From contig JBILVO010000004.1 of NCBI GenBank assembly GCA_044370415.1, positions 3,467-67,466 on the forward strand: a DNA stretch of 64,000 nucleotides, read 5' to 3'. Of this stretch, positions 53,967 to 64,000 are shown piece by piece (within the stretch, counting starts at the first letter, position 1; every line of letters begins with the position of its first letter). A program made the position numbers and the translations under genes. A model generated the notes under the pieces. The model saw only the letters and a program-made list of their open reading frames with translations, was not told the DNA's origin and searched no databases. The stretch comes from Pirellulales bacterium (GTDB taxonomy: Bacteria > Planctomycetota > Planctomycetia > Pirellulales > UBA1268).

Positions 53967-54728
53967 ATGAGCAGCCGCCTTCCGGAACGGAAACAGGATC
54001 ATCGGAAACAGGATCTTCGGGCCTCGGGCGGCCGCCGCCGTGCGGCTGGGCGACGGCCGGCCGTCGCCACCGTGGCCGGGTCATCCGCCTGGCTCGGGGA
54101 CGACCGCCTCTTCACGCCGCTGGCGTACGAGCCCGGCTACGACTACCCGCTGCTGGTCTGGCTGCCCGGGCAGGCGGAGGAGGAGCCGGCCAAGCGATTC
54201 GATCTGGCCCGCACGATGACGCGGGTGAGCCTCCGCAATTTCGTCGCGATCCAGCCGCTGCCCGCGGCGGATGATCCGGCGACGCTCGGCTGGGACGACC
54301 TGGTCTTCCGCTCGATCGACCGCGTCCGCGAACGGCTCTCGATCCATCGCCGACGCGTCTTCCTCGTGGGCCGTGGTTCGGGCGGCACCGAGGCGTTTCG
54401 CATCGCCTGCCGGCATCCCGACGCCTTCGCCGGTGTCGTGTCGATCGGCGGGCCGTTTCCTCTCGACGAGGGGCTGTTCGCACGGATCGCCGAGGTGCGA
54501 CGCCTCCCGATGCTGCTCTGCTGCCGACAGGGCGGTGCCGACGACGTCCGCGCCGCGCACGTGGACCGCACCCTGCGGCTCTTCCACGCCGCCGGCGCGT
54601 CGCTCGCCATGCGGATCTATCCCGGCCGCAACGACCTGGCCCGTGGAGTCCTGGCCGACGTGAACCGCTGGGTCATGGACGAAGTCTGCGGCAGTCCGGC
54701 CAACGTCCACTCGCTCTCCGCCTCGTGA
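53967..54728 (+). CDS. Alpha/beta hydrolase-fold protein (carboxylesterase-like) lacking the canonical catalytic Ser/His
   Basis: YEPGYDYPLLVWLPG, SIHRRRVFLVGRGSGG, FAGVVSIGG, YPGRNDL. Confidence 0.75.
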   Translation: MSSRLPERKQDHRKQDLRASGGRRRAAGRRPAVATVAGSSAWLGDDRLFTPLAYEPGYDYPLLVWLPGQAEEEPAKRFDLARTMTRVSLRNFVAIQPLPAADDPATLGWDDLVFRSIDRVRERLSIHRRRVFLVGRGSGGTEAFRIACRHPDAFAGVVSIGGPFPLDEGLFARIAEVRRLPMLLCCRQGGADDVRAAHVDRTLRLFHAAGASLAMRIYPGRNDLARGVLADVNRWVMDEVCGSPANVHSLSAS

Positions 54729-55267
54729 CAGGCAACACGACGATGTCGCTCCCCTCCCGTTCCCGCCACCTGGTTCCCGACGGCGCGTCGCTCCGCGACC
54801 TGCTCGCGTCGATCGTCGCCGACTGCTGCCGCTCCGCCCGGGAGCGGGGCCTGCCCGCCGTCGCCGTGACGCTCGATGCGCCCGGAGGGCAGCTCGTCCC
54901 GGCCGCGGCCACACCGCTTCGCCGCCTCCTCGAATCGCTGCTGCGCCGGGCCGTCGAGTCGGCCGCGGGAGCCGAGCGTGAGGGGGATGCCCCGCTGATG
55001 CGCGAAGTGCTTGTGACAAGCGTCGACATGGACGATTGCATCGAGATCGAGGTCGCCGATTCCGGGGCCGGACTCCCGCGGGAGGTCCGCGCGTGGCTCG
55101 CCGGCCAAGGCGACGAGACGCCCGCCGGGGCGGGGCTGGCGCTGGCTGCGGTGCGGGCGGCGGCCGATCGGATCGGCGGCACGGTCTGCGCCGTCGATTG
55201 CCCCGAGGGAGGCGTGGCCGTCACGCTCCGCCTGCCGCGTCGTCAGGCACAGCGGCTGGCCGCCTGA
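54725..55267 (+). CDS. Stand-alone HATPase_c-like domain protein (no HisKA, degenerate N box)
   Basis: G1 IEVADSGAGL, G2 GAGLALA, CPEGGVAVTLRLP; N box reads ESLLRRAVES; GTGA overlap. Confidence 0.75.
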   Translation: MTGNTTMSLPSRSRHLVPDGASLRDLLASIVADCCRSARERGLPAVAVTLDAPGGQLVPAAATPLRRLLESLLRRAVESAAGAEREGDAPLMREVLVTSVDMDDCIEIEVADSGAGLPREVRAWLAGQGDETPAGAGLALAAVRAAADRIGGTVCAVDCPEGGVAVTLRLPRRQAQRLAA

Positions 55268-55357: not shown

Positions 55358-57553
55358 ATGGACGCACAGCTGGGTTCATCGTCGATTCGCCATCACACCC
55401 TGCCGCTCGCGCCGGCGCAGGTGATCGCGCTGGGCCTCGTCGCAGCGTCGATCGGCTGGGCCGTGTGGCTGCTGCGCGACAGGCCGGCCAGCGAGGAGGT
55501 CGAGCTGCTCGCCGGGATGGTGCTGCCGTCGTCGGAGATGGCCATCATGGAGGCCGCCTTCGACCGGGCACAGCTCGGCGACCACCGCACCGAGGGCGGC
55601 CGGGTGTGGGTGCCGCGTAGCCGGCAGAGCGCCTACATGCGGGCGTTGGTCGATGCCGAGGCGTTGCCGCGCGAGTTCGGCGGCAGCCTCCGCCGCGCCC
55701 TCGAGAAGAACAGTCCGTGGCAGAGCAGGGCGGTGCAGGACGAGCTGCTGCGGGTGGCGACCCAGGAGGAGCTGTCGCTGGTGATCTGTTCGATGCCCGG
55801 CATCGAGCGGGCGGCCGTGCTCTACGACACGGAGAGCCGCGGCGGGTTTGACGGCACCGGCCACGGTCAGCCCGCCAAGACGGCGAGCGTGAACGTGCGC
55901 ACCCAGCCCGACACCGAGCTCGATCCGGCGCGGGTGCAGGCGATCCGCGTGCTGGTGAGCTCGTCGATCGCGGGGCTGACGCCCGAGCGGGTCGCGGTCA
56001 CGGACCTGCGCAGCGGCCGCGTCCACGCGGGACCGCTCGACGCCGACGCCGACCGTGAGTCGGCCGCGGCGGCGGCCGATCCGGCGCTGGCCCGCCGGAT
56101 CGCCCACGAGCGGCACCTGGCCGCGAAGGTGCGGCAGGCGATCTCCTTCATCAAGGGGGCCGCCGTCGACGTCACCGTGGAGTTCGCCGGGCCCGAGAGC
56201 GATGCGGCGCCGGTGCCGCCCGCACCGGCCGTGGTCGACGTCCGCGGCGCCGTGCCGCTCCAGAGGGCCGCCGACGCCAACGCCCCCGCCGAGATCCAGC
56301 CGGCGGCGCCGGTGGCAGCAGTGCCGCCGCCCGCGGCCGCTCCGCGGGCGACCCCGGAGCCGCCCGATGCGGCCCCGAACGCCATCTTCGTCTCGATCGC
56401 CGTGCCCGAGAGCTACTTCCAGGCCGCTTGCCGCGCCGCCGCCGAACGGGCGGGGCAGCCGCTGCTCCAGCCGCTCGCCATCGAGACCCAGGAGACCGAA
56501 CGGATCCGTCAGCACGTACTCGCGCTGCTGCCGGCGACCCGCGATCCCGCCCGCCGCCGCGTCGTCGTCACCGGGTTTCCGATCGGGGGGCCGCTCGCCG
56601 GCCGTCGCGACCAGCCATCGCGTGCCGCCAGCTCCGCCGTCGACGGCGGCAGCCGCGACAAGGCGTCGCCGGCGAGCCTCGAAGAGGTCGTCGCGCTGGT
56701 CGCCGCCGGCCGCTTCGACGAGGTGCCGCGGCAGATCTGGCTGGCGACCATGAGCGTGAGCGTCGGCCTGCTGGCGGCCCTGCTGTGGATGCTCGGCGGG
56801 CGCGCCGACTCCTCCGGAGACAGCGGGATGCACGCCCGTCGTGCCCCGCCGCGGATCGACTGGTCGGCGGCGGGCGATCCGCACGAAGAAGGACATGCGA
56901 CGCAGGAACGCCCCGGCATCGCGCGGGCAGCGACTCTGCTCCTCTGCCTGACTCTCTCGGCCGGCACCGTGCGGGCTGCCGGCGCCGACCCGGTGCCGCC
57001 GTCGCCGGAGTCGGTCCTGCCCGAGCCGGACGCAGCCCCGCAGTCCGAGCCGACCGCCCGCGGCGCGGAGTCCGCGACGCCGCGATCGGTGGCGCACCGC
57101 CATGCGGGGCCGGCCCCCCAGGTGCTGCCGGCCTTGCCGCTCGACGGATCAAGGGGCTCCGCGGGAGACGATCCCGTCGCCGCTTCCCCGCGGATCGGCG
57201 ACTGGAAACTGCTCGCCGTGATCGTCGCCGCCTTTGCCGCGGTCGGCGTCGCCTCGCGGCTGTCGCGGCGCAAGACGGCGACACTGCCGCCCGACGTGTT
57301 CGAAGTGCTCGGGACGGCACCACTCGCCGGACAGCACGCGGTGCGGATCGTGCGGTTCGGCCCCAAGACGCTCCTCATCGGCGTGTCCACGGGCGGCTGC
57401 CAGACCCTCGCCGAGATCTCGGATCCGCAGGCCACGGCCTGCATCGCCGCAGCCTGCCGCGGCAGTCATCCGCCCCTGCGGGCCGCCGCGCGGAGCGATC
57501 AACGGCCCGCACCGCCGCCGGCGACGCCGCGGACCGGCCGGGAGGCCGCATGA
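55358..57553 (+). CDS. FliF/YscJ-like MS-ring protein fused in-frame to a FliO-like C-terminal domain
   Basis: RBM2 motifs EELSLVICSMPGIERAAV, KTASVNV, QAIRVLVSSSIAGLTPERVAVTD; RBM3 fragments; TM2; then FliO-like TM + PDVFEVLGTAPLAGQHAVRIVRFGPKTLLIGVSTGGCQTLAEISDP. Confidence 0.78.
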   Translation: MDAQLGSSSIRHHTLPLAPAQVIALGLVAASIGWAVWLLRDRPASEEVELLAGMVLPSSEMAIMEAAFDRAQLGDHRTEGGRVWVPRSRQSAYMRALVDAEALPREFGGSLRRALEKNSPWQSRAVQDELLRVATQEELSLVICSMPGIERAAVLYDTESRGGFDGTGHGQPAKTASVNVRTQPDTELDPARVQAIRVLVSSSIAGLTPERVAVTDLRSGRVHAGPLDADADRESAAAAADPALARRIAHERHLAAKVRQAISFIKGAAVDVTVEFAGPESDAAPVPPAPAVVDVRGAVPLQRAADANAPAEIQPAAPVAAVPPPAAAPRATPEPPDAAPNAIFVSIAVPESYFQAACRAAAERAGQPLLQPLAIETQETERIRQHVLALLPATRDPARRRVVVTGFPIGGPLAGRRDQPSRAASSAVDGGSRDKASPASLEEVVALVAAGRFDEVPRQIWLATMSVSVGLLAALLWMLGGRADSSGDSGMHARRAPPRIDWSAAGDPHEEGHATQERPGIARAATLLLCLTLSAGTVRAAGADPVPPSPESVLPEPDAAPQSEPTARGAESATPRSVAHRHAGPAPQVLPALPLDGSRGSAGDDPVAASPRIGDWKLLAVIVAAFAAVGVASRLSRRKTATLPPDVFEVLGTAPLAGQHAVRIVRFGPKTLLIGVSTGGCQTLAEISDPQATACIAAACRGSHPPLRAAARSDQRPAPPPATPRTGREAA

Positions 57554-58449
57554 GGCGGGCCATGCGGCTCGGCGTCGTCCGCGCGACCGCGGCCGCACTG
57601 CTGGCGGCATGCGTCCTGGCATCGGCCTGCGCGGAGGAGCCGGCCGCGACGGCGGTGGAGCCGGCGTCGCTCCGCCTGATCCCGGCGACGGGCGAGCCCG
57701 CGGTCGCGGGGACGGCCGCGCCGCAGCCCGCGCGTCCGCAGGGTGAGGCAGGAGAAGCCGCGGCACTGGCGGTGCGGCTGCTCGGCACCCGCTCGCTCGA
57801 CACGCTCCTCCCGGCGCTGCTGATGTTCGGCGTGGCGAGCCTGGCGCCCGCCGTGCTCCTGATGACCACGTGCTTCGTGCGGATCTCGATCGTGCTGGCG
57901 CTCGTCCGCCAGGGTCTCGGCACGGCGCAGCTGCCGTCGAACCAGATCCTCACGTCGCTGGCCCTCTTCCTCTCGGCGCTGGTCATGTGGCCGGTCTGGA
58001 CCGCCGCCTACCGCGACGGCATCGAGCCCTACCAGCAGGGCAGGATCGAACTGGCCGCGGCATACGACCGGGGGAGCCTGCCGGTGCGCCGCTGGATGGC
58101 GGCGCAGATCGAGCAAGCGGGCAACCGAGACACGATGCTCTTCTTCCTCGCGCGGCATCCCTCGGCGCCCACCCGCGTGGCGACCTACGACGACGTGCCG
58201 GTCGAGACGCTGCTGCCCGCGTTCCTCGTGAGCGAGCTGAAGACCTCCTTCGCCATCGGCTTCCGGATCCTGCTGCCGTTCCTGGTGCTCGACGTGCTCG
58301 TGGCGACGCTCGTGGTGTCGACCGGGCTGGTCATGCTGCCGCCGACACTGGTGTCGCTGCCGCTGAAGCTGCTGGTGTTCGTGGCCGCGGACGGCTGGTC
58401 TCTGGTGGTGCGGTCGCTGCTCGACGGGATGCGGCAGGCGACCTCGTGA
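57550..58449 (+). CDS. fliP: Flagellar/T3SS export gate protein FliP (SctR), divergent
   Basis: SLAPAVLLMTTCFVRISIVL, LPSNQILTSLALFLS, LLPAFLVSELKTSF, LPPTLVSLPLKLLVFVAADGW. Confidence 0.93.
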   Translation: MRRAMRLGVVRATAAALLAACVLASACAEEPAATAVEPASLRLIPATGEPAVAGTAAPQPARPQGEAGEAAALAVRLLGTRSLDTLLPALLMFGVASLAPAVLLMTTCFVRISIVLALVRQGLGTAQLPSNQILTSLALFLSALVMWPVWTAAYRDGIEPYQQGRIELAAAYDRGSLPVRRWMAAQIEQAGNRDTMLFFLARHPSAPTRVATYDDVPVETLLPAFLVSELKTSFAIGFRILLPFLVLDVLVATLVVSTGLVMLPPTLVSLPLKLLVFVAADGWSLVVRSLLDGMRQATS

Positions 58450-58480
58450 CCCCGCGACACCCCCGGCCCGGGAGGGTCCG

Positions 58481-58732
58481 ATGAACGACGGCGAACTCGT
58501 GGAACTCGTCAGGCAGGCGATCCTGTCGGGCCTGATCGTGATCGCGCCGGTGCTCTGCGCGGGCTTCGCGGTGGCCACGGTCGTCGGACTCGTCCAGGCG
58601 GCGACCGGCGTCCACGAACCGCTCGTCGGCTTCGTGCCGCGGCTGGTGGCCATGGCCGCCACGCTCCTGATCACGATGCCCTGGATGGTCGAGCGGCTCG
58701 CCGACATGTTCCGCACCGCGGCGGGGCCGTGA
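58481..58732 (+). CDS. fliQ: Export gate protein FliQ (SctS), divergent
   Basis: 83 aa, two hydrophobic helices, GLVQAATGVHEPLVGFVPR, MPWM; position after fliP. Confidence 0.88.
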   Translation: MNDGELVELVRQAILSGLIVIAPVLCAGFAVATVVGLVQAATGVHEPLVGFVPRLVAMAATLLITMPWMVERLADMFRTAAGP

Positions 58733-58800
58733 TCGCGCCCGCTCGACGCCTGTCGTCGTATCGATCCACCGAGAGGAGCGGCTGAGCCGCAGCGCCCGTC

Positions 58801-59574
58801 ATGCCCATCACCCCGCTGCCGTCCGCCGACATGCTCGTCGCCACGGGGGTCTGCCTCCGGATGGTGGCGGCGGTCATCGCCGGCACGCTGCCGATCCTCG
58901 AGGGCGCGTCGGTCCGGATCCGGATCGCGCTGGCCGCGGCGCTGGCCGTCGTCGCCGTGCCCATGGCCTGGCAGGCGCACGCGGTGCACCCGGCTGCGGG
59001 GCCGGCGGTCGTGCTGGCCGGGGAGCTGCTCGTGGGCCTGGTGATGGGCACGGCCGTGGCGGCACTGCTCTCCGCCACCGGCTGGGCCGGGGCGATCCTC
59101 GGCAGCGTCTCGGGCCTGTCCTGGTCCGACGACTTCGCCGCGGCAGGCGATCCGCAGTCGGCGGGCGTCGCCAGGCTGGCGTGGTGGATCGGGCTGGCCG
59201 CCTTCGTCGCTGCCGGCGGACAGCTGACCGTCGTCGGGGGCCTCGTCGACAGCGTGCGCCACCTGCCGGTCGGCACCGTGGGCAGCATGCAGTCGGCCGG
59301 GGGCTCGATCCTCGATCTCGCCATCGCCATGCCCGCCATGGCGATCTCGCTGGCCGTGACGCTGGCGATCCCCGCGCTGGCCGCTGTGCTGGCCTTTCAC
59401 TTGGCCGCCGTCTTCTGCCTGCGCACGGTGGCGCTGCCGCCGGGAGCGGGATTCCTGCAGGGAATGGCCGCGGTCGTGCTCCTGGCCGCCGTGTGGCTCG
59501 GGCTGCGGACGTGGACGGACGGTGGCGTCGCCATGACGCTCGGCTCGATCGCCGACTGCTTCGCGCCGAGGTGA
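58801..59574 (+). CDS. fliR: Export gate protein FliR (SctT), strongly divergent
   Basis: 257 aa hydrophobic; VRIRIALA, GELLVGLVMG, AGAILGSVSGLS, VDSVRHLPVG, SLAVTLAIPALAA; position after fliQ. Confidence 0.82.
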   Translation: MPITPLPSADMLVATGVCLRMVAAVIAGTLPILEGASVRIRIALAAALAVVAVPMAWQAHAVHPAAGPAVVLAGELLVGLVMGTAVAALLSATGWAGAILGSVSGLSWSDDFAAAGDPQSAGVARLAWWIGLAAFVAAGGQLTVVGGLVDSVRHLPVGTVGSMQSAGGSILDLAIAMPAMAISLAVTLAIPALAAVLAFHLAAVFCLRTVALPPGAGFLQGMAAVVLLAAVWLGLRTWTDGGVAMTLGSIADCFAPR

Positions 59575-59578
59575 ATCG

Positions 59579-60376
59579 ATGGGAGACGCGGACGACCGCA
59601 CGATCCCGGCGACGCCCCGCCGCCGGGAACTGGCCCGTCGGCAGGGCGGCATGCCGCTGGCGCACCAGCCGGCCTGGGCGGCCGCCGCGGCGACGACCGT
59701 GCTGCTGCTGCCGGCCTGGGCGCGGGCCACCTTCCCCGCGGCGACCGAGATGATGCGGGGGGCACTGACCGCGGCCGTGATCGACGGCGGCTCGGCGGCC
59801 CCGCGGGCCGCCCCGGCGGTCCCGTTGGCGATGCTCGTCCCCACCGCGGCCGTGATCGTCGCGGCCGGTGTCGTCGGCCTGGCGGTGCGGCTGCTGCTCG
59901 ACGGCGGCGGCTGGAGGCCGTCGCGGGTGGCGCCGTCGCTCGACAGGATCAGCCTGATCGCGGGGCTCGCGCGGATCTTCTCGGCACGCACCGCCGTCGT
60001 CGTGGCGACGAGCGCCGCGGCACTGGCCACCGTGACCGCGGTCGGGATCCTCTTCGTGGGCCCGCTCGTGGCCGTGCTCGGGGAGCCGGCGGCCGCGGCC
60101 GAGCCCGAACTGCTCATGCTTCCCATGCGTCGCGCCCTCGTCGCCGTCGCGGCCGGGTCTGTGGTGCTGGCCGCCGGCCAATGGATCATGGCGCGGCTGC
60201 GTTTCGAGCGTCGCATCCGCATGACCCCGCAGGAATATGCGGACGAGGCCCGGAGCATGCAGGCGGCGCCGCAGGTGCGGCTGATGCAGCGTCGGGCCGG
60301 CGCCACCACCGCCCATCCCCGGCCCGCGGCCGCGGATTCCGCCGCCGGGCTGCGATCCGCAGCGGCTTCGCGATAG
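59579..60376 (+). CDS. flhB: FlhB (SctU)-like protein truncated before the NPTH autocleavage domain
   Basis: N-terminal DDRTIPATPRRRELARRQG, PSRVAPSLDRISLIAGLARIFS, FERRIRMTPQEYADEAR; stop ~30 codons later, no NPTH. Confidence 0.8.
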   Translation: MGDADDRTIPATPRRRELARRQGGMPLAHQPAWAAAAATTVLLLPAWARATFPAATEMMRGALTAAVIDGGSAAPRAAPAVPLAMLVPTAAVIVAAGVVGLAVRLLLDGGGWRPSRVAPSLDRISLIAGLARIFSARTAVVVATSAAALATVTAVGILFVGPLVAVLGEPAAAAEPELLMLPMRRALVAVAAGSVVLAAGQWIMARLRFERRIRMTPQEYADEARSMQAAPQVRLMQRRAGATTAHPRPAAADSAAGLRSAAASR

Positions 60377-60444
60377 AATGTGATGACGCGCGGCTGCGCG
60401 GTCCTCAGGGGAGTCTCGTCGAACACCGTCTCGTCGAACCATCC

Positions 60445-63400
60445 ATGATCTACACGACCCACACCTGCCGCGGCCTGCTCCGATCCGTCCTCCTGGTTCT
60501 GGCGTGCGCGTCGACCTCCATCGGCCAGCCGCCGCCACCTGGCGGTCCGCCCGGCGCCGCTCCTCCCCCCGCCAGCGAGCCCAACCCGCCGCCCAAGGAC
60601 GCCAAGCTGGTCGCCGAGGTCTATACGAAGCTCGTCGCGGCGAAGCCCGTCGATGCCGACACGCTGGCCGCGAAAGTCTCCGACTACCCCGTCTGCCGGC
60701 TGCGGCTCTACGTGCCGCCGCAGGTCGGCGAGAAGGGCATCGTCGGCATCGACCACGGTATCTTCCGGTCGACCGGAAAGGTGAAGTCGATCACGCTGTC
60801 GGGCACGAGCGCGGTCTTCCGCTCGCGGCTCAATCAACTGCTCGCCGACCCCGCGGCCGCGTCGACGAAGAACGGCGAGGCCGGGGTGCGGGTCGTCGAC
60901 TTCTGGTGCCAGCGGCCGGAGGGCGCGACGACCTACGTGCCCTACCTGCCGCTGCTGGCGAAGGTGTGGTCCAACGCGTCGGCGGCCGACATTCCCGCCG
61001 GCGACACGACGACGCCGGTGCCGGGACTCGTCTGTTACGACGACACGCCGGAGATCGCCGAGTGCCAGCAGGCGTTCGACTACTCGCCTCCCGTGTTCAA
61101 GAAGGGCATGACCGAGGTCGAGGCTCCGGCGAGCACCGTCACCGCACTGGCGGAGGCGATCAAGTCGCACCGCACGCAGTTGGCGGCGGTGGTCACCAAG
61201 CTGGCAGCGGACAGGATGACGACCAAGCGCATGCCGAATCTCGGCGGGTCCCTGATCATGCTCGACTCGACGCACTCGCTCGGCGAGGAGGCGTGCTCGC
61301 ACGCGGGCACGGCGCCCCGGGTGCTCACAGGAGGCGAGTCGTTCATCGGACTGTCCCCCGACGTGAAGGAGGGCACGGTAACGCTCCGCCAGAAACTGCC
61401 CTTCCCGCTCGGCGCCGGAATCCTGAGGGTGCCGGCGCGAATCACGAGCCCCAAGGCGACGATCGACGTCGAGATCTCGAAGGACGGCGAGAATTGGACG
61501 CGGCTCTTCCTGCTCGCCGCCGACCGCGGCGGCAGCAAGTGGGAGGCCGACGCCTCGTATCCCCTACCCAAGTCATTCCGCGGCTCGGCCAAGTTCCAGA
61601 TCCGCGCCCGTCTCTCTTCGACCGACGAAAAAACCGCCGGCCTCGACCGCGCGGGCGGGCCGCGATTTCTCGACGCCGTGACACGGCTGCCGCGCACGAC
61701 AGAACTCCGCGTGGACGACGGTCTCCTGCGGACGGTCTCGTGCAAGGATCAGGCCGCGGCCGCGGCCAAGCCCTTCTCCCTGCTCATCCAGCCGGAGCGG
61801 CTCGACGTGCAGGCGCTGTCGGAACTGCTGCAGGCACGCGAGGCGGAGAGCGATGTCTACGCTCCGTGCGACCTCGACGAGGCTGCCTGCTCGGCCATCG
61901 CAAAACACGACGGCACGCTGCGCTTCTGGTCGCCGGACGAATGGCAGCAGCATCCTCCCGCCTGGCTGTCGGCGATGGCGGGCGGAGCGGGCCACCTGGT
62001 GTTCGCCGGGCTCGAGCAGCCGGCGCCGGAACTGGCCTCGGCGCTGGCCCCGGGAAAGAAGGCGCTATCGTTCCCGCTCGCCACAGCGCCAGACATCGAA
62101 CTCCTGAAGATCCTCGCCACGTGCACCACCCCGCTGTCGCTGGACGGCATTGTTGATGTGTCCGCAGAGCAGGCCGGTGCGCTGAACGCCTACGCCGGGC
62201 CGAAGCTCTCCCTCGCCGCCGCACGAGCCGCCACCACCTCCGATCCGCCCGGGGCGGCGCTGGCGGCCGCGGTCGTAGCGTCTTCCGGCACGTTCACCAT
62301 CGGCGGTGCGGCGGCTCCGGACGCCGCCACGCTGGCCATCCTGGCCGGTGGACAAAAACACCTCGTATTCGACGGGCTGGAAGCCCTCGACGCGGGAGCC
62401 GCCAAGACCCTGGCAGCCTCGGGCAACGGACTCGCACTGACCGGCCTGGTGTCGTTGCCGCGTGATGCCGCCGACGCGCTCCTCGGCTACCAGGGTCCGC
62501 TGCTTTCGCTGCCCAAGCTGAAGCATGTGACATGCAGCGTGGAAGGGCTGTACCCAGCGAATCAGAAGCCCGTAGTCCGGCTGGCGGCCGCCGTGCGGCA
62601 GGCGGCGCTGGAGGTGGGCGACGACGCAAAGGCCCAGGCGGCCGCGGCGGTGAAGGAACTCGACGCGATCCTCGCCGAAGCGGTGGATCGCGGGCTGTGC
62701 TCTGCCAAGGACAAGGAGCGGATCGCCCGGGGTGTGGAGGCGGCGACGACTTCTCCGGCGGCCATCGTGGACAGGGTCCGCGAAGCGCTCCCGTTGCTGT
62801 CCCCGGACACCCGGCTGGGCATGCGGACCGGGCTCCCGCTCACCGCCTTCGTCGACGCCCCCGGCGTCTTCGTCCTCGAGTCGCCATCGACGGCCCGCAA
62901 GGGCGTGCCCGACAAGGCGTTCTTCGAGACGCTCGCCCAGGGGCGGAAGCACCTCGATCTCTCCAGCCTCACGTCGCTCGACACCGACATGGCCACGGTG
63001 CTGGCGACCACCGAGGGCATCCTGTCGCTCGACGGCCTCACCTCCATCACACCGGAGGCGCTCACTGCACTCGCCGCCTACAAGGGTCCGTTCCTCTCCC
63101 TCAACGGCCTCAAGGTGCCACAGACAGCGGACGATCTAACCAAACTGACGGCAGCATTGAAGCCGATCTTCGAGATGGTGCGCGAGGACCGCGCGAGCGC
63201 CGGCGGACTCTACGCGATCAACATCTCGGGCATGCGCGACTATGTCCTCGAGGCCACCGACTCACTCCCCGAGAAACCGAAGAAGGCCGCCAAGCAGCTC
63301 CAGGCCAATTCGGGCTCTCGCGACTGGGCGAGCCAGGCCGGCCAGCGGGTCAAGGGCAAGGTGCTCGCGCTGCTCGGTCCCGACGTGATCATCGAGACGC

Positions 63401-63573
63401 CGTTCGGGCCCTCGGACGCGACTTCGATCGGTTCGTTCGTGCCGCTCAGCAAGAAGCCACTCATGATGCTGCAGGAGGTGGGTGCGCAGCTCGCCCCCCT
63501 GCGGACAAAGGCCAAGTTCGCCGCGGAGAGCGGTCAGGCCGACGCCGGGGCGGCCACCCCGGCCGGCAACTAA
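60445..63573 (+). CDS. Large exported protein with degenerate ~24-aa leucine-rich repeats
   Basis: Signal peptide + Pro-rich linker; repeats LSLDGIVDVSAEQAGAL, LALTGLVSLPRDAADAL, LDLSSLTSLDTDMATVL, LSLDGLTSITPEALTAL; TAGAAT -10-like box at 60374. Confidence 0.75.
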   Translation: MIYTTHTCRGLLRSVLLVLACASTSIGQPPPPGGPPGAAPPPASEPNPPPKDAKLVAEVYTKLVAAKPVDADTLAAKVSDYPVCRLRLYVPPQVGEKGIVGIDHGIFRSTGKVKSITLSGTSAVFRSRLNQLLADPAAASTKNGEAGVRVVDFWCQRPEGATTYVPYLPLLAKVWSNASAADIPAGDTTTPVPGLVCYDDTPEIAECQQAFDYSPPVFKKGMTEVEAPASTVTALAEAIKSHRTQLAAVVTKLAADRMTTKRMPNLGGSLIMLDSTHSLGEEACSHAGTAPRVLTGGESFIGLSPDVKEGTVTLRQKLPFPLGAGILRVPARITSPKATIDVEISKDGENWTRLFLLAADRGGSKWEADASYPLPKSFRGSAKFQIRARLSSTDEKTAGLDRAGGPRFLDAVTRLPRTTELRVDDGLLRTVSCKDQAAAAAKPFSLLIQPERLDVQALSELLQAREAESDVYAPCDLDEAACSAIAKHDGTLRFWSPDEWQQHPPAWLSAMAGGAGHLVFAGLEQPAPELASALAPGKKALSFPLATAPDIELLKILATCTTPLSLDGIVDVSAEQAGALNAYAGPKLSLAAARAATTSDPPGAALAAAVVASSGTFTIGGAAAPDAATLAILAGGQKHLVFDGLEALDAGAAKTLAASGNGLALTGLVSLPRDAADALLGYQGPLLSLPKLKHVTCSVEGLYPANQKPVVRLAAAVRQAALEVGDDAKAQAAAAVKELDAILAEAVDRGLCSAKDKERIARGVEAATTSPAAIVDRVREALPLLSPDTRLGMRTGLPLTAFVDAPGVFVLESPSTARKGVPDKAFFETLAQGRKHLDLSSLTSLDTDMATVLATTEGILSLDGLTSITPEALTALAAYKGPFLSLNGLKVPQTADDLTKLTAALKPIFEMVREDRASAGGLYAINISGMRDYVLEATDSLPEKPKKAAKQLQANSGSRDWASQAGQRVKGKVLALLGPDVIIETPFGPSDATSIGSFVPLSKKPLMMLQEVGAQLAPLRTKAKFAAESGQADAGAATPAGN

Positions 63574-63591: not shown

Positions 63592-64000
63592 CTACGACGG
63601 AGCCGCGTAGCCGTAGCGCTCGATGAACGGCCCCCAGCGCCGCGAAATTTCCGCGACGATCCGCGGATCGCTGACGTAGGTGTTGGTGCGGTACTGCTTC
63701 ATCGACCGCGCCGTCTCCTCGAGCGTCGGCCGCACCTGGTCGAACCCGCCGAGATCGAGCCGCTCGTACGCCTCCGCCAGCCGGGCGACAGGATCGGCGA
63801 CCAGATCCTCGTAGCGGATCTCGTGCAGCCGGCCGGGCGCGAGGGCGGCCCGATCACGGTCGAAGGCCGCATACATCTCCTCGAAGGCCGCGAAGACGTA
63901 GGGCTCGAGCGTGTCGCCGCGGTCGACCTGCAGGCTCTGCACCTCGTGCAGCGATCGCCACAGCCGCATCGTGGAAGAGAACACGACGAACGGATCGCGA
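63592..64000 (-). CDS. Sulfotransferase family protein (partial, 5' end outside window)
   Basis: RDPFVVFSSTMRLW (3'-phosphate-binding RDP motif), EIRYEDLVADP, YERLDLGGF, FIERYGY. Confidence 0.85.
   Translation of the reverse strand, partial: RDPFVVFSSTMRLWRSLHEVQSLQVDRGDTLEPYVFAAFEEMYAAFDRDRAALAPGRLHEIRYEDLVADPVARLAEAYERLDLGGFDQVRPTLEETARSMKQYRTNTYVSDPRIVAEISRRWGPFIERYGYAAPS

Follow-up and report, generated by a model that had tools for sequence, protein, structure and literature searches.

Why should a bacterium keep an intact flhB gene whose product stops short of the domain by which flagellar export changes from one class of substrate to the next? The question is raised by the last of five co-oriented, tightly packed genes (55358-60376) on a 64,000-nucleotide stretch of DNA from a Pirellulales bacterium, referred to here as the window. 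These genes encode, in order, a FliF/FliO-like protein, FliP, FliQ, FliR and a homolog of the export gate protein FlhB. The window lies on a 71.9-kb contig of a 4.2-Mb metagenome-assembled genome (MAG), which comprises 263 contigs and is 94.4% complete, with 70.8% G+C. The C-terminal domain of FlhB docks rod-type and hook-type substrates and, after autocleavage at an NPTH motif, responds to FliK, which ends early export. The homolog in the window (59579-60376; 265 residues, TAG stop) consists of a membrane domain, a hinge helix and a short tail, and has no such switch domain. All features described below are on the + strand unless stated otherwise.

FlhB ends at its domain boundary

Residues 6-249 of the protein match the Pfam family PF01312 (Bac_export_2) over profile positions 2-244 of 335 (97 bits; cut-off 24.4), and profile positions 245-335 are unmatched, so that the globular C-terminal domain is gone together with the cleavage motif. 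Homology extends through FERRIRMTPQEYADEARSMQAAPQVRLMQRR (residues 209-239) and is followed by an Ala/Pro/Arg-rich tail of 24-26 residues and the TAG. When the protein is aligned with full-length FlhB from flagellated relatives, homology reaches RMTPQEYADEARSMQAAPQVRLMQRR and ends there, ahead of the C-terminal domain; the relatives continue for about 110 further residues, VVVTNPTELAVAI among them. Residue 241 aligns with residue 248 of Salmonella FlhB, about 20 residues ahead of N269, and neither the alignment nor a motif scan finds any NPxx motif in the 265 residues. The profile coverage and the alignments thus place the truncation at the domain boundary of FlhB. A first-pass annotation, made from the letters of the window alone, had already described a homolog that stops ahead of the autocleavage domain and then runs through about 25 low-complexity residues to a TAG, and this description holds. 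It had also relied on the lack of NPTH codons before the next gene. The C-terminal domain is indeed absent from the vicinity, but NPTH codons alone are an insufficient test because flagellated members of the order carry NPTE, and the real evidence is the alignment together with the profile coverage. NPTE rather than NPTH was seen in the full-length FlhB of these flagellated members (aligned or scanned in L002-L013, L045, L064 and L065); NPTH or NPEH is found in other classes of the phylum, and NPTE also in one genome of family f78.

The remaining part of the protein is well conserved. The N-terminal cytoplasmic motif PATPRRRELARRQG (59606-59647, residues 10-23) aligns with PTPxRxxxAREEGQ of full-length FlhB, and across 48 homologs there is no change at P10, A11, T12, P13, R14, R15, R16, A19 or G23. 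The loop PSLDRISLIAGLARIFS (59933-59983, residues 119-135), in which R123, G129, R132 and S135 are invariant in the same set, aligns with PDxSRxNPLxGLKRxFS of full-length FlhB, a segment that wraps the FliPQR base in solved structures (PMC13710759). The last conserved part of the protein is the juxtamembrane segment with the hinge helix, RLRFERRIRMTPQEYADEARSMQAAPQVRLMQRRAG (60194-60301, residues 206-241), where R206, R208, F209, E210, R214, M215, E219, E223 and A229 do not vary. There are 35 invariant columns in total, mostly in the N-terminal motif, the loop and the juxtamembrane helix. Beyond them lies the variable, low-complexity tail (60302-60376, residues 242-265, with the TAG at 60374-60376), which ranges from 0 to 35 residues across the family without conservation; a weak tail ending, DSAxG[LIM]R[SA]A...R, is common to the closest sub-clade only.

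The structural comparison gives the same boundaries. An AlphaFold2 (AF2) model is all-helical, with a predicted local distance difference test score (pLDDT) of 80.7 that falls to 52-54 in the tail. Helices are predicted at residues 217-229 and 231-244, and R234, R238 and R239 lie in the second of them. The sole credible fold match of the model is chain 6s3l_K of the Vibrio FliPQR-FlhB complex (probability 1.00, template modelling (TM) score 0.65 on target length, Foldseek E 0.07). With a profile built from the 48 homologs, the match to the PDB FlhB chains 6s3l_K and 8z5s_x is confined to residues 4-254 (E 3e-16). The 265-residue protein therefore retains four membrane helices along with the N-terminal motif, the loop that wraps the gate and the basic hinge helix. 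In a 2026 in situ structure, two FlhB hairpins pack on FliPQR and their loops wrap the base of the gate, while the conserved basic hinge helix enters the FlhA tunnel, faces FlhA D158 and joins the N-terminal domain to the C-terminal one; this helix may couple the proton-driven engine to translocation (PMC13710759). Since the end of the planctomycete protein falls inside the hinge helix or immediately behind it, everything that sits on or in the gate appears to have been kept, and the globular domain alone lost.

The short form is conserved and under purifying selection

The first-pass annotation had left it to relatives to decide whether the end point is shared. It is common to every FlhB match of the family (23 of 24 relatives, six genera): wherever the contig does not break off within the gene, the match ends at profile positions 234-249. 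In a large database, the best 120 protein clusters (90% identity) are all of 219-272 residues. In a 50%-identity library the closest near-complete representatives have about 236-270 residues, and many more distant short FlhB proteins end directly after the GDPxxxxRRR segment. The flhB open reading frames (ORFs) of the family are intact at 31-93% identity. The ratio of nonsynonymous to synonymous substitution rates (dN/dS; NG86 method) is 0.13-0.33. This range comes from pairs in which dS is not saturated (0.11-0.78, under a limit of 0.8); pairs that include this genome are near saturation (dS about 1). On these comparisons, we regard the short FlhB as a real, ancient and selected feature and not a lesion. 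One protein of 541 residues (P0141) joins a short-type FlhB, a lipoprotein-like signal sequence and tetratricopeptide (TPR) repeats in one ORF, probably through loss of a stop codon or a merged gene call.

The export gate locus and its origin

The fliP-fliQ-fliR-flhB block is present, and flhB directly follows fliR. FliR (58801-59574, 257 residues; PF01311, 71.9 bits) is syntenic in all family members examined. FliQ (58481-58732) has 83 residues and matches PF01313 with 70.1 bits. The probable start codon of FliP (57550-58449; PF00813, 214 bits) is an ATG at 57550 that overlaps, as ATGA, with the upstream TGA and follows a GGGAGG; within the genus, FliP proteins are 75-85% identical. The gasket segment of FliP (58318-58344) is STGLVMLPP in each of the eight family genomes examined, which span six genera, whereas flagellated or less reduced relatives have S/GMGM(L/F/I)ML(P/S)P, for example SMGMLMLPP in flagellated relatives. 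This uniformity indicates that the gasket change is a derived yet strictly constrained state and not decay. Upstream, an MS-ring protein that resembles FliF and has a C-terminal part like FliO (55358-57553) matches PF01514 at residues 78-217 and PF04347 at residues 637-694. The two parts form a single ORF here; they lie in different frames in the relative G020 (L033 2777-4914; tblastn pieces), which shows that not every member of the family has the fusion.

FlhA is encoded on a short separate contig. It is of full length (profile positions 2-655) and keeps the entire cytoplasmic substrate-receptor domain. It also keeps R147, R154, D158, D249 and R270 (Salmonella numbering), with K203 replaced by R and D208 by E. 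An acidic residue at position 208 is the single charge that is essential, and D208E supports Salmonella export, though slower (PMC3139655).

Two conserved neighbours lie upstream of fliF (53967-55267), an ORF of 253 codons (53967-54728) without any Pfam family above cut-off and a protein of 180 residues (54725-55267) with a HATPase_c domain only. Each of the six genera in the family has the order Mdh - ORF253 - HATPase - fliF, and so do G027 and G031, which belong to two other families. Homologs of Mdh and ORF253 also border the flagellar supercluster of the flagellated relative G035, which holds flgBC, fliF, fliG, fliI, hook genes, fliOPQR, flhB and flhA. The common flanks suggest that the locus in the window is the ancestral flagellar locus from which the intervening genes have been deleted, that is, a product of vertical reduction. 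The flanks matching the G035 flagellar supercluster and a gate-protein tree that follows taxonomy speak against an acquired injectisome (secretin and needle proteins were not searched for). The small HATPase_c protein may be a remnant of the flagellar two-component regulator. At the place in G035 that corresponds to HATPase and ORF253 there are a 307-aa ORF and a 462-aa ORF, and the own-genome match of the latter is a sigma-54-type response regulator on contig C60.

Downstream, the next gene begins 68 nt after the TAG and encodes 1042 residues (60445-63573) with a signal-peptide-like N-terminus and no Pfam match. It was rejected as a conserved partner or substrate, as a homolog (37% identity) follows flhB in one relative only (G004). 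The first-pass annotation had pointed to a TAGAAT box overlapping the TAG as a -10-like element for this gene. The hexamer is present at 60374-60379, but a sigma-70 scan of 60150-60600 returned no site, and the promoter reading was dropped. A sulfotransferase-like gene is convergent to the cluster (63592-64000, - strand) and runs off the window. Its homolog in G040 of family f17 (L041 10857-12512, - strand) directly follows a truncated flhB, so that the gene can be counted among the conserved flanks of the ancestral locus. What looked like a conserved gene behind the flhB of G040 turned out to be the antisense shadow of this opposite-strand flank gene and was discarded as a partner.

Flagellar components not found

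Rod/hook, FliG and flagellin families were searched in this genome and in 24 relatives of the family, and the other components in this genome only. There was no match to the rod/hook domain PF00460 in this genome or in any of the relatives, no FliG (FliG_C) in either, and nothing above the cut-off for flagellin (PF00669) in any of these genomes. In this genome, the best FliM/N match (FliMN_C) has E 0.04, the best FliK match (PF02120) has E 0.03 and is below the cut-off, and FliE and FliH were not found. One FliI candidate, on contig C60, proved to be the F1 ATP synthase beta subunit, with the epsilon subunit next to it, and no other FliI-like match was better. Thus the axial proteins, the rotor/switch, the export ATPase complex and the FliK ruler of a functional flagellum were not found. 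The genes kept and the genes not found are together what would be expected of an orphan flagellar export core. The earlier suggestion, that the gate has no specificity switch and belongs to a system making neither hook nor filament, is supported by these genes not being found, by the truncation shared among relatives and by the failure to find a stand-alone C-terminal domain; protein export by the gate would be a putative activity.

A probable single-mode export gate or a different function

How can the truncation be explained? We consider it on balance probable that the shortened FlhB has been selected as part of a flagellum-derived export gate of a single mode, a gate for which we infer assembly, export and the destination of the cargo. 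The lineage would have descended from flagellated planctomycetes through deletion of the genes between fliF and fliO and of all axial, rotor, ATPase and ruler genes. With the early and late substrate classes gone, the switch domain would have been left without clients and would have been lost. The membrane part and the hinge helix would still be needed to build the FliPQR gate and to couple FliPQR to FlhA. FliF/FliO, FliPQR, the short FlhB and FlhA would then make up a cytoplasmic-membrane gate that runs on the proton-motive force with no ATPase. Such a gate would work in one mode, the cytoplasmic ring or C-terminal domain of FlhA being the only substrate receptor, and in the absence of a rod the cargo would be released into the periplasm. 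We count it in favour of export that the ion-coupling residues of FlhA have been kept, with D208E known to support export in Salmonella.

Several points weigh against this explanation. To our knowledge, an FlhB or SctU deprived of its C-terminal domain in the laboratory does not support export. The methionine gasket of FliP is altered family-wide and FliI, FliH and FliG were not found, so that gating and energisation must differ from those of any studied system. No conserved partner, substrate or chaperone gene was identified. In addition, part of the long stem (length 1.53) on which this genome's family sits in the gate-protein tree described below may reflect relaxed constraint. Finally, the genome is a draft MAG, 94% complete, in which each single missing gene counts as not found and not as absent.

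The most serious rival is that the gate is functional and selected without exporting proteins, and serves instead as a membrane scaffold or polar landmark, as an FlhA-based ion-conducting module, as a regulator of another appendage or as a platform for protrusions. Purifying selection proves function and not which function, and the altered FliP gasket, together with the export ATPase, the C-ring and all known substrates not being found, would fit a changed activity. There are also precedents, in that leftover export genes of Lysobacter control twitching motility (PMC7277350), and the Bacillus subtilis core has been reported as a platform for nanotubes, with core-only species noted (PMC6456723). 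However, the FlhA residues tied to ion-coupled export have been kept, the cytoplasmic substrate-receptor domain of FlhA is whole, and the FlhB hinge helix and the FliPQR channel motifs are conserved. Moreover, G040 keeps the FliH/I/J export ATPase alongside its truncated FlhB. We therefore regard a role other than export as rather unlikely, although it has to be taken seriously, and continue to favour the single-mode export gate.

The truncation has arisen repeatedly

Another explanation is that the locus is a decaying relic of a lost flagellum, with the short FlhB as a pseudogene remnant that has yet to be deleted. Genomes of the order form a graded series with which it can be compared. G031 has an FlhB of full length whose cleavage motif is degraded to NQAE, and keeps FliG, with no rod, hook or flagellin found. 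In G040 FlhB is truncated, and FliF, FliG, FliH, FliI, FliJ, FliO, FliPQR and FlhA stand in one cluster, with no axial proteins found. In G027 and in the family of this genome FlhB is truncated and FliG also was not found. The loss of the FlhB C-terminal domain even where the export ATPase is kept, as in G040, argues against simple decay.

We surveyed 401 genomes of Planctomycetota, each at least 90% complete. FlhB and rod proteins occur together in 245 of them, FlhB occurs with rod proteins not found in 37, rod proteins occur with FlhB not found in 4, and neither was found in 115. FlhB is low-scoring in all 37 rod-less genomes (E 7e-98 to 3e-16), and as low as E > 1e-80 in 5 of the 245 flagellated genomes, four of which are fragmented or contaminated assemblies. 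The fifth, G141 (family f47), is a closed 4.4-Mb genome with rod proteins and with FlhB in five separate PF01312 matches (best E 2.6e-41); this otherwise flagellated genome may have an interrupted or mosaic flhB. Among ten rod-less genomes inspected, seven are truncated at profile positions 222-241 (families f18, f61, f78, f86, f91 and f99), and the other three have FlhB of full length, two without an NP motif (LHAGSA and APNGE at its place) and one with NPVH. In each of the families f18, f21, f61, f78 and f99, rod-less members occur beside flagellated ones whose FlhB is of full length.

A maximum-likelihood tree was built from concatenated FliP, FliQ, FliR and the FlhB N-terminal domain (33 taxa, 793 columns). 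The truncated forms of f61, f78 and f99 group with flagellated members of their own families (support 99-100), and those of f86 and f91 group together (support 100). Constraining the truncated forms to one clade costs 434.5 units of log-likelihood (approximately unbiased test, P = 1.9e-10), and a single origin or a horizontal spread of a truncated cassette was accordingly rejected. These phylogenetic data are most simply read as at least five truncations that occurred independently at one and the same boundary. The truncated lineages have longer branches. It appears from the tree and the within-family comparisons that change accelerated after loss of the C-terminal domain, yet purifying selection is measurable within the family.

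The relic explanation can now be judged. It could account for the massive loss of flagellar genes, for the variable, low-complexity tail of FlhB and for the fast evolution of the gate proteins, as seen in the long stem and in family FlhB scores of about 90 bits versus about 390. It does not sit with flhB frames that are intact in 23 relatives of six genera down to 31% identity at such low dN/dS, with a gene order conserved family-wide, with a highly conserved FliP or with at least 120 distinct 90%-identity clusters of like length, nor with the same end point having arisen independently in several families. It is largely refuted, and we hold it to be very unlikely.

The missing domain was not found elsewhere

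A further explanation is that docking and switching are supplied in trans, as by FlhX in Helicobacter, through a diverged protein or one that lies in the unassembled 6% of the genome. Spare C-terminal domains of the FlhX type do exist in other bacteria, and this genome is 94% complete. We have searched for such a domain in several ways. Read-through of the TAG was ruled out, as it would add about 24 codons before a TGA, and no C-terminal domain was found hidden in other frames or fused to another gene. There is no second PF01312 match in the genome at E<=1. When the C-terminal domains of seven planctomycete relatives were compared with the genome, the best tblastn match had E 0.027 and the best match of six-frame hidden Markov model (HMM) searches had E 2.8, which is noise only. 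Neither this genome nor any of the 23 same-family relatives that have an FlhB match yielded a stand-alone FlhX-like domain, so the separate gene that the first-pass annotation had named as a possible complement did not turn up. The clients of such a switch (FliK, rod, hook and flagellin) were not found either. Supply in trans thus appears about as unlikely as decay. An artefact of assembly, frameshift or gene calling, which a draft of 263 contigs might suggest, is refuted because the truncation is conserved across assemblies, the same protein length recurring in independent assemblies and metagenomes, with the gene well inside its 71.9-kb contig and no coding remnant of the C-terminal domain downstream in any frame.

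Implications for the type III export gate

FlhB and SctU have been treated as two-part proteins, and we know of no studied type III system in which the switch domain is dispensable. In the planctomycetes described here, evolution seems to have removed the switch domain alone, with the membrane part remaining under selection, and always in genomes where neither rod nor hook proteins were found. The pattern supports the view that the membrane part and hinge helix of FlhB make up an autonomous gate module, and that the C-terminal domain exists only for ordering substrate classes. About 9% of the well-assembled Planctomycetota sampled (37 of 401) carry a flagellum-derived export gate and no flagellum, with the genes annotated as ordinary flagellar genes. 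Such lineages make up a natural, graded series in which the capabilities of a minimal type III gate could be studied, from the full system through a degenerate NPTH motif and a truncated FlhB with ATPase to a truncated FlhB without ATPase or C-ring. A bolder proposal, which we put forward tentatively and think possible more than probable, is that non-flagellated Planctomycetota have repeatedly made a new class of type III-derived translocase and not a leftover. It would be composed of the MS-ring, FliOPQR, a switchless FlhB and FlhA, would work in one mode on the proton-motive force, free of ATPase in its most reduced forms, and would deliver dedicated proteins into the large planctomycete periplasm.

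Comparison with known systems

Orphan flagellar export cores are known, and the recurrent removal of the FlhB switch domain with the gate module preserved has apparently not been described. In full-text searches of the literature we found no description of an FlhB lacking the C-terminal domain or of a planctomycete orphan gate, and public annotations call the short proteins plain FlhB or "export apparatus switch protein". Compared with canonical FlhB/SctU (PF01312; PDB 6s3l_K, 8z5s and 36hu), the planctomycete protein shares the N-terminal motif, the four membrane helices, the loop, the juxtamembrane and hinge helices and the position of the gene after fliR. It differs in lacking about 110 C-terminal residues, among them the NPT(H/E) site and the fold on which early substrates dock and which is the target of the FliK signal.

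[quoted passage not shown] Unlike the planctomycete system, in which the ATPase, the axial proteins and the FlhB C-terminal domain were not found, OH11 keeps FliI and some axial or assembly proteins such as FlgD. No truncated FlhB has been reported there, and an OH11 flhB mutant was complemented by a Xanthomonas gene (PMC7688988, PMC7277350). The "CORE" of Bhattacharya et al. (2019), FliOPQR-FlhB-FlhA, is the same gene set and is kept without most flagellar or injectisome genes in Myxococci, Chloracidobacterium and Succinatimonas. However, neither Planctomycetota nor a truncation of FlhB figures in that work, and the nanotube role was shown in flagellated species with full-length FlhB (PMC6456723). 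Partial flagellum-derived type III secretion loci and the "Myxo" systems of Myxococcales resemble the planctomycete loci in being conserved, vertically inherited and reduced, with no motility parts, and Abby and Rocha (2012) argued from their long-term conservation that such reduced loci are functional. That study recorded the presence or absence of core genes and gave no account of an SctU/FlhB that had lost its switch domain. The Myxo systems belong to a non-flagellar branch (PMC3459982), whereas the planctomycete system is most simply seen as a flagellar locus that has been reduced in situ.

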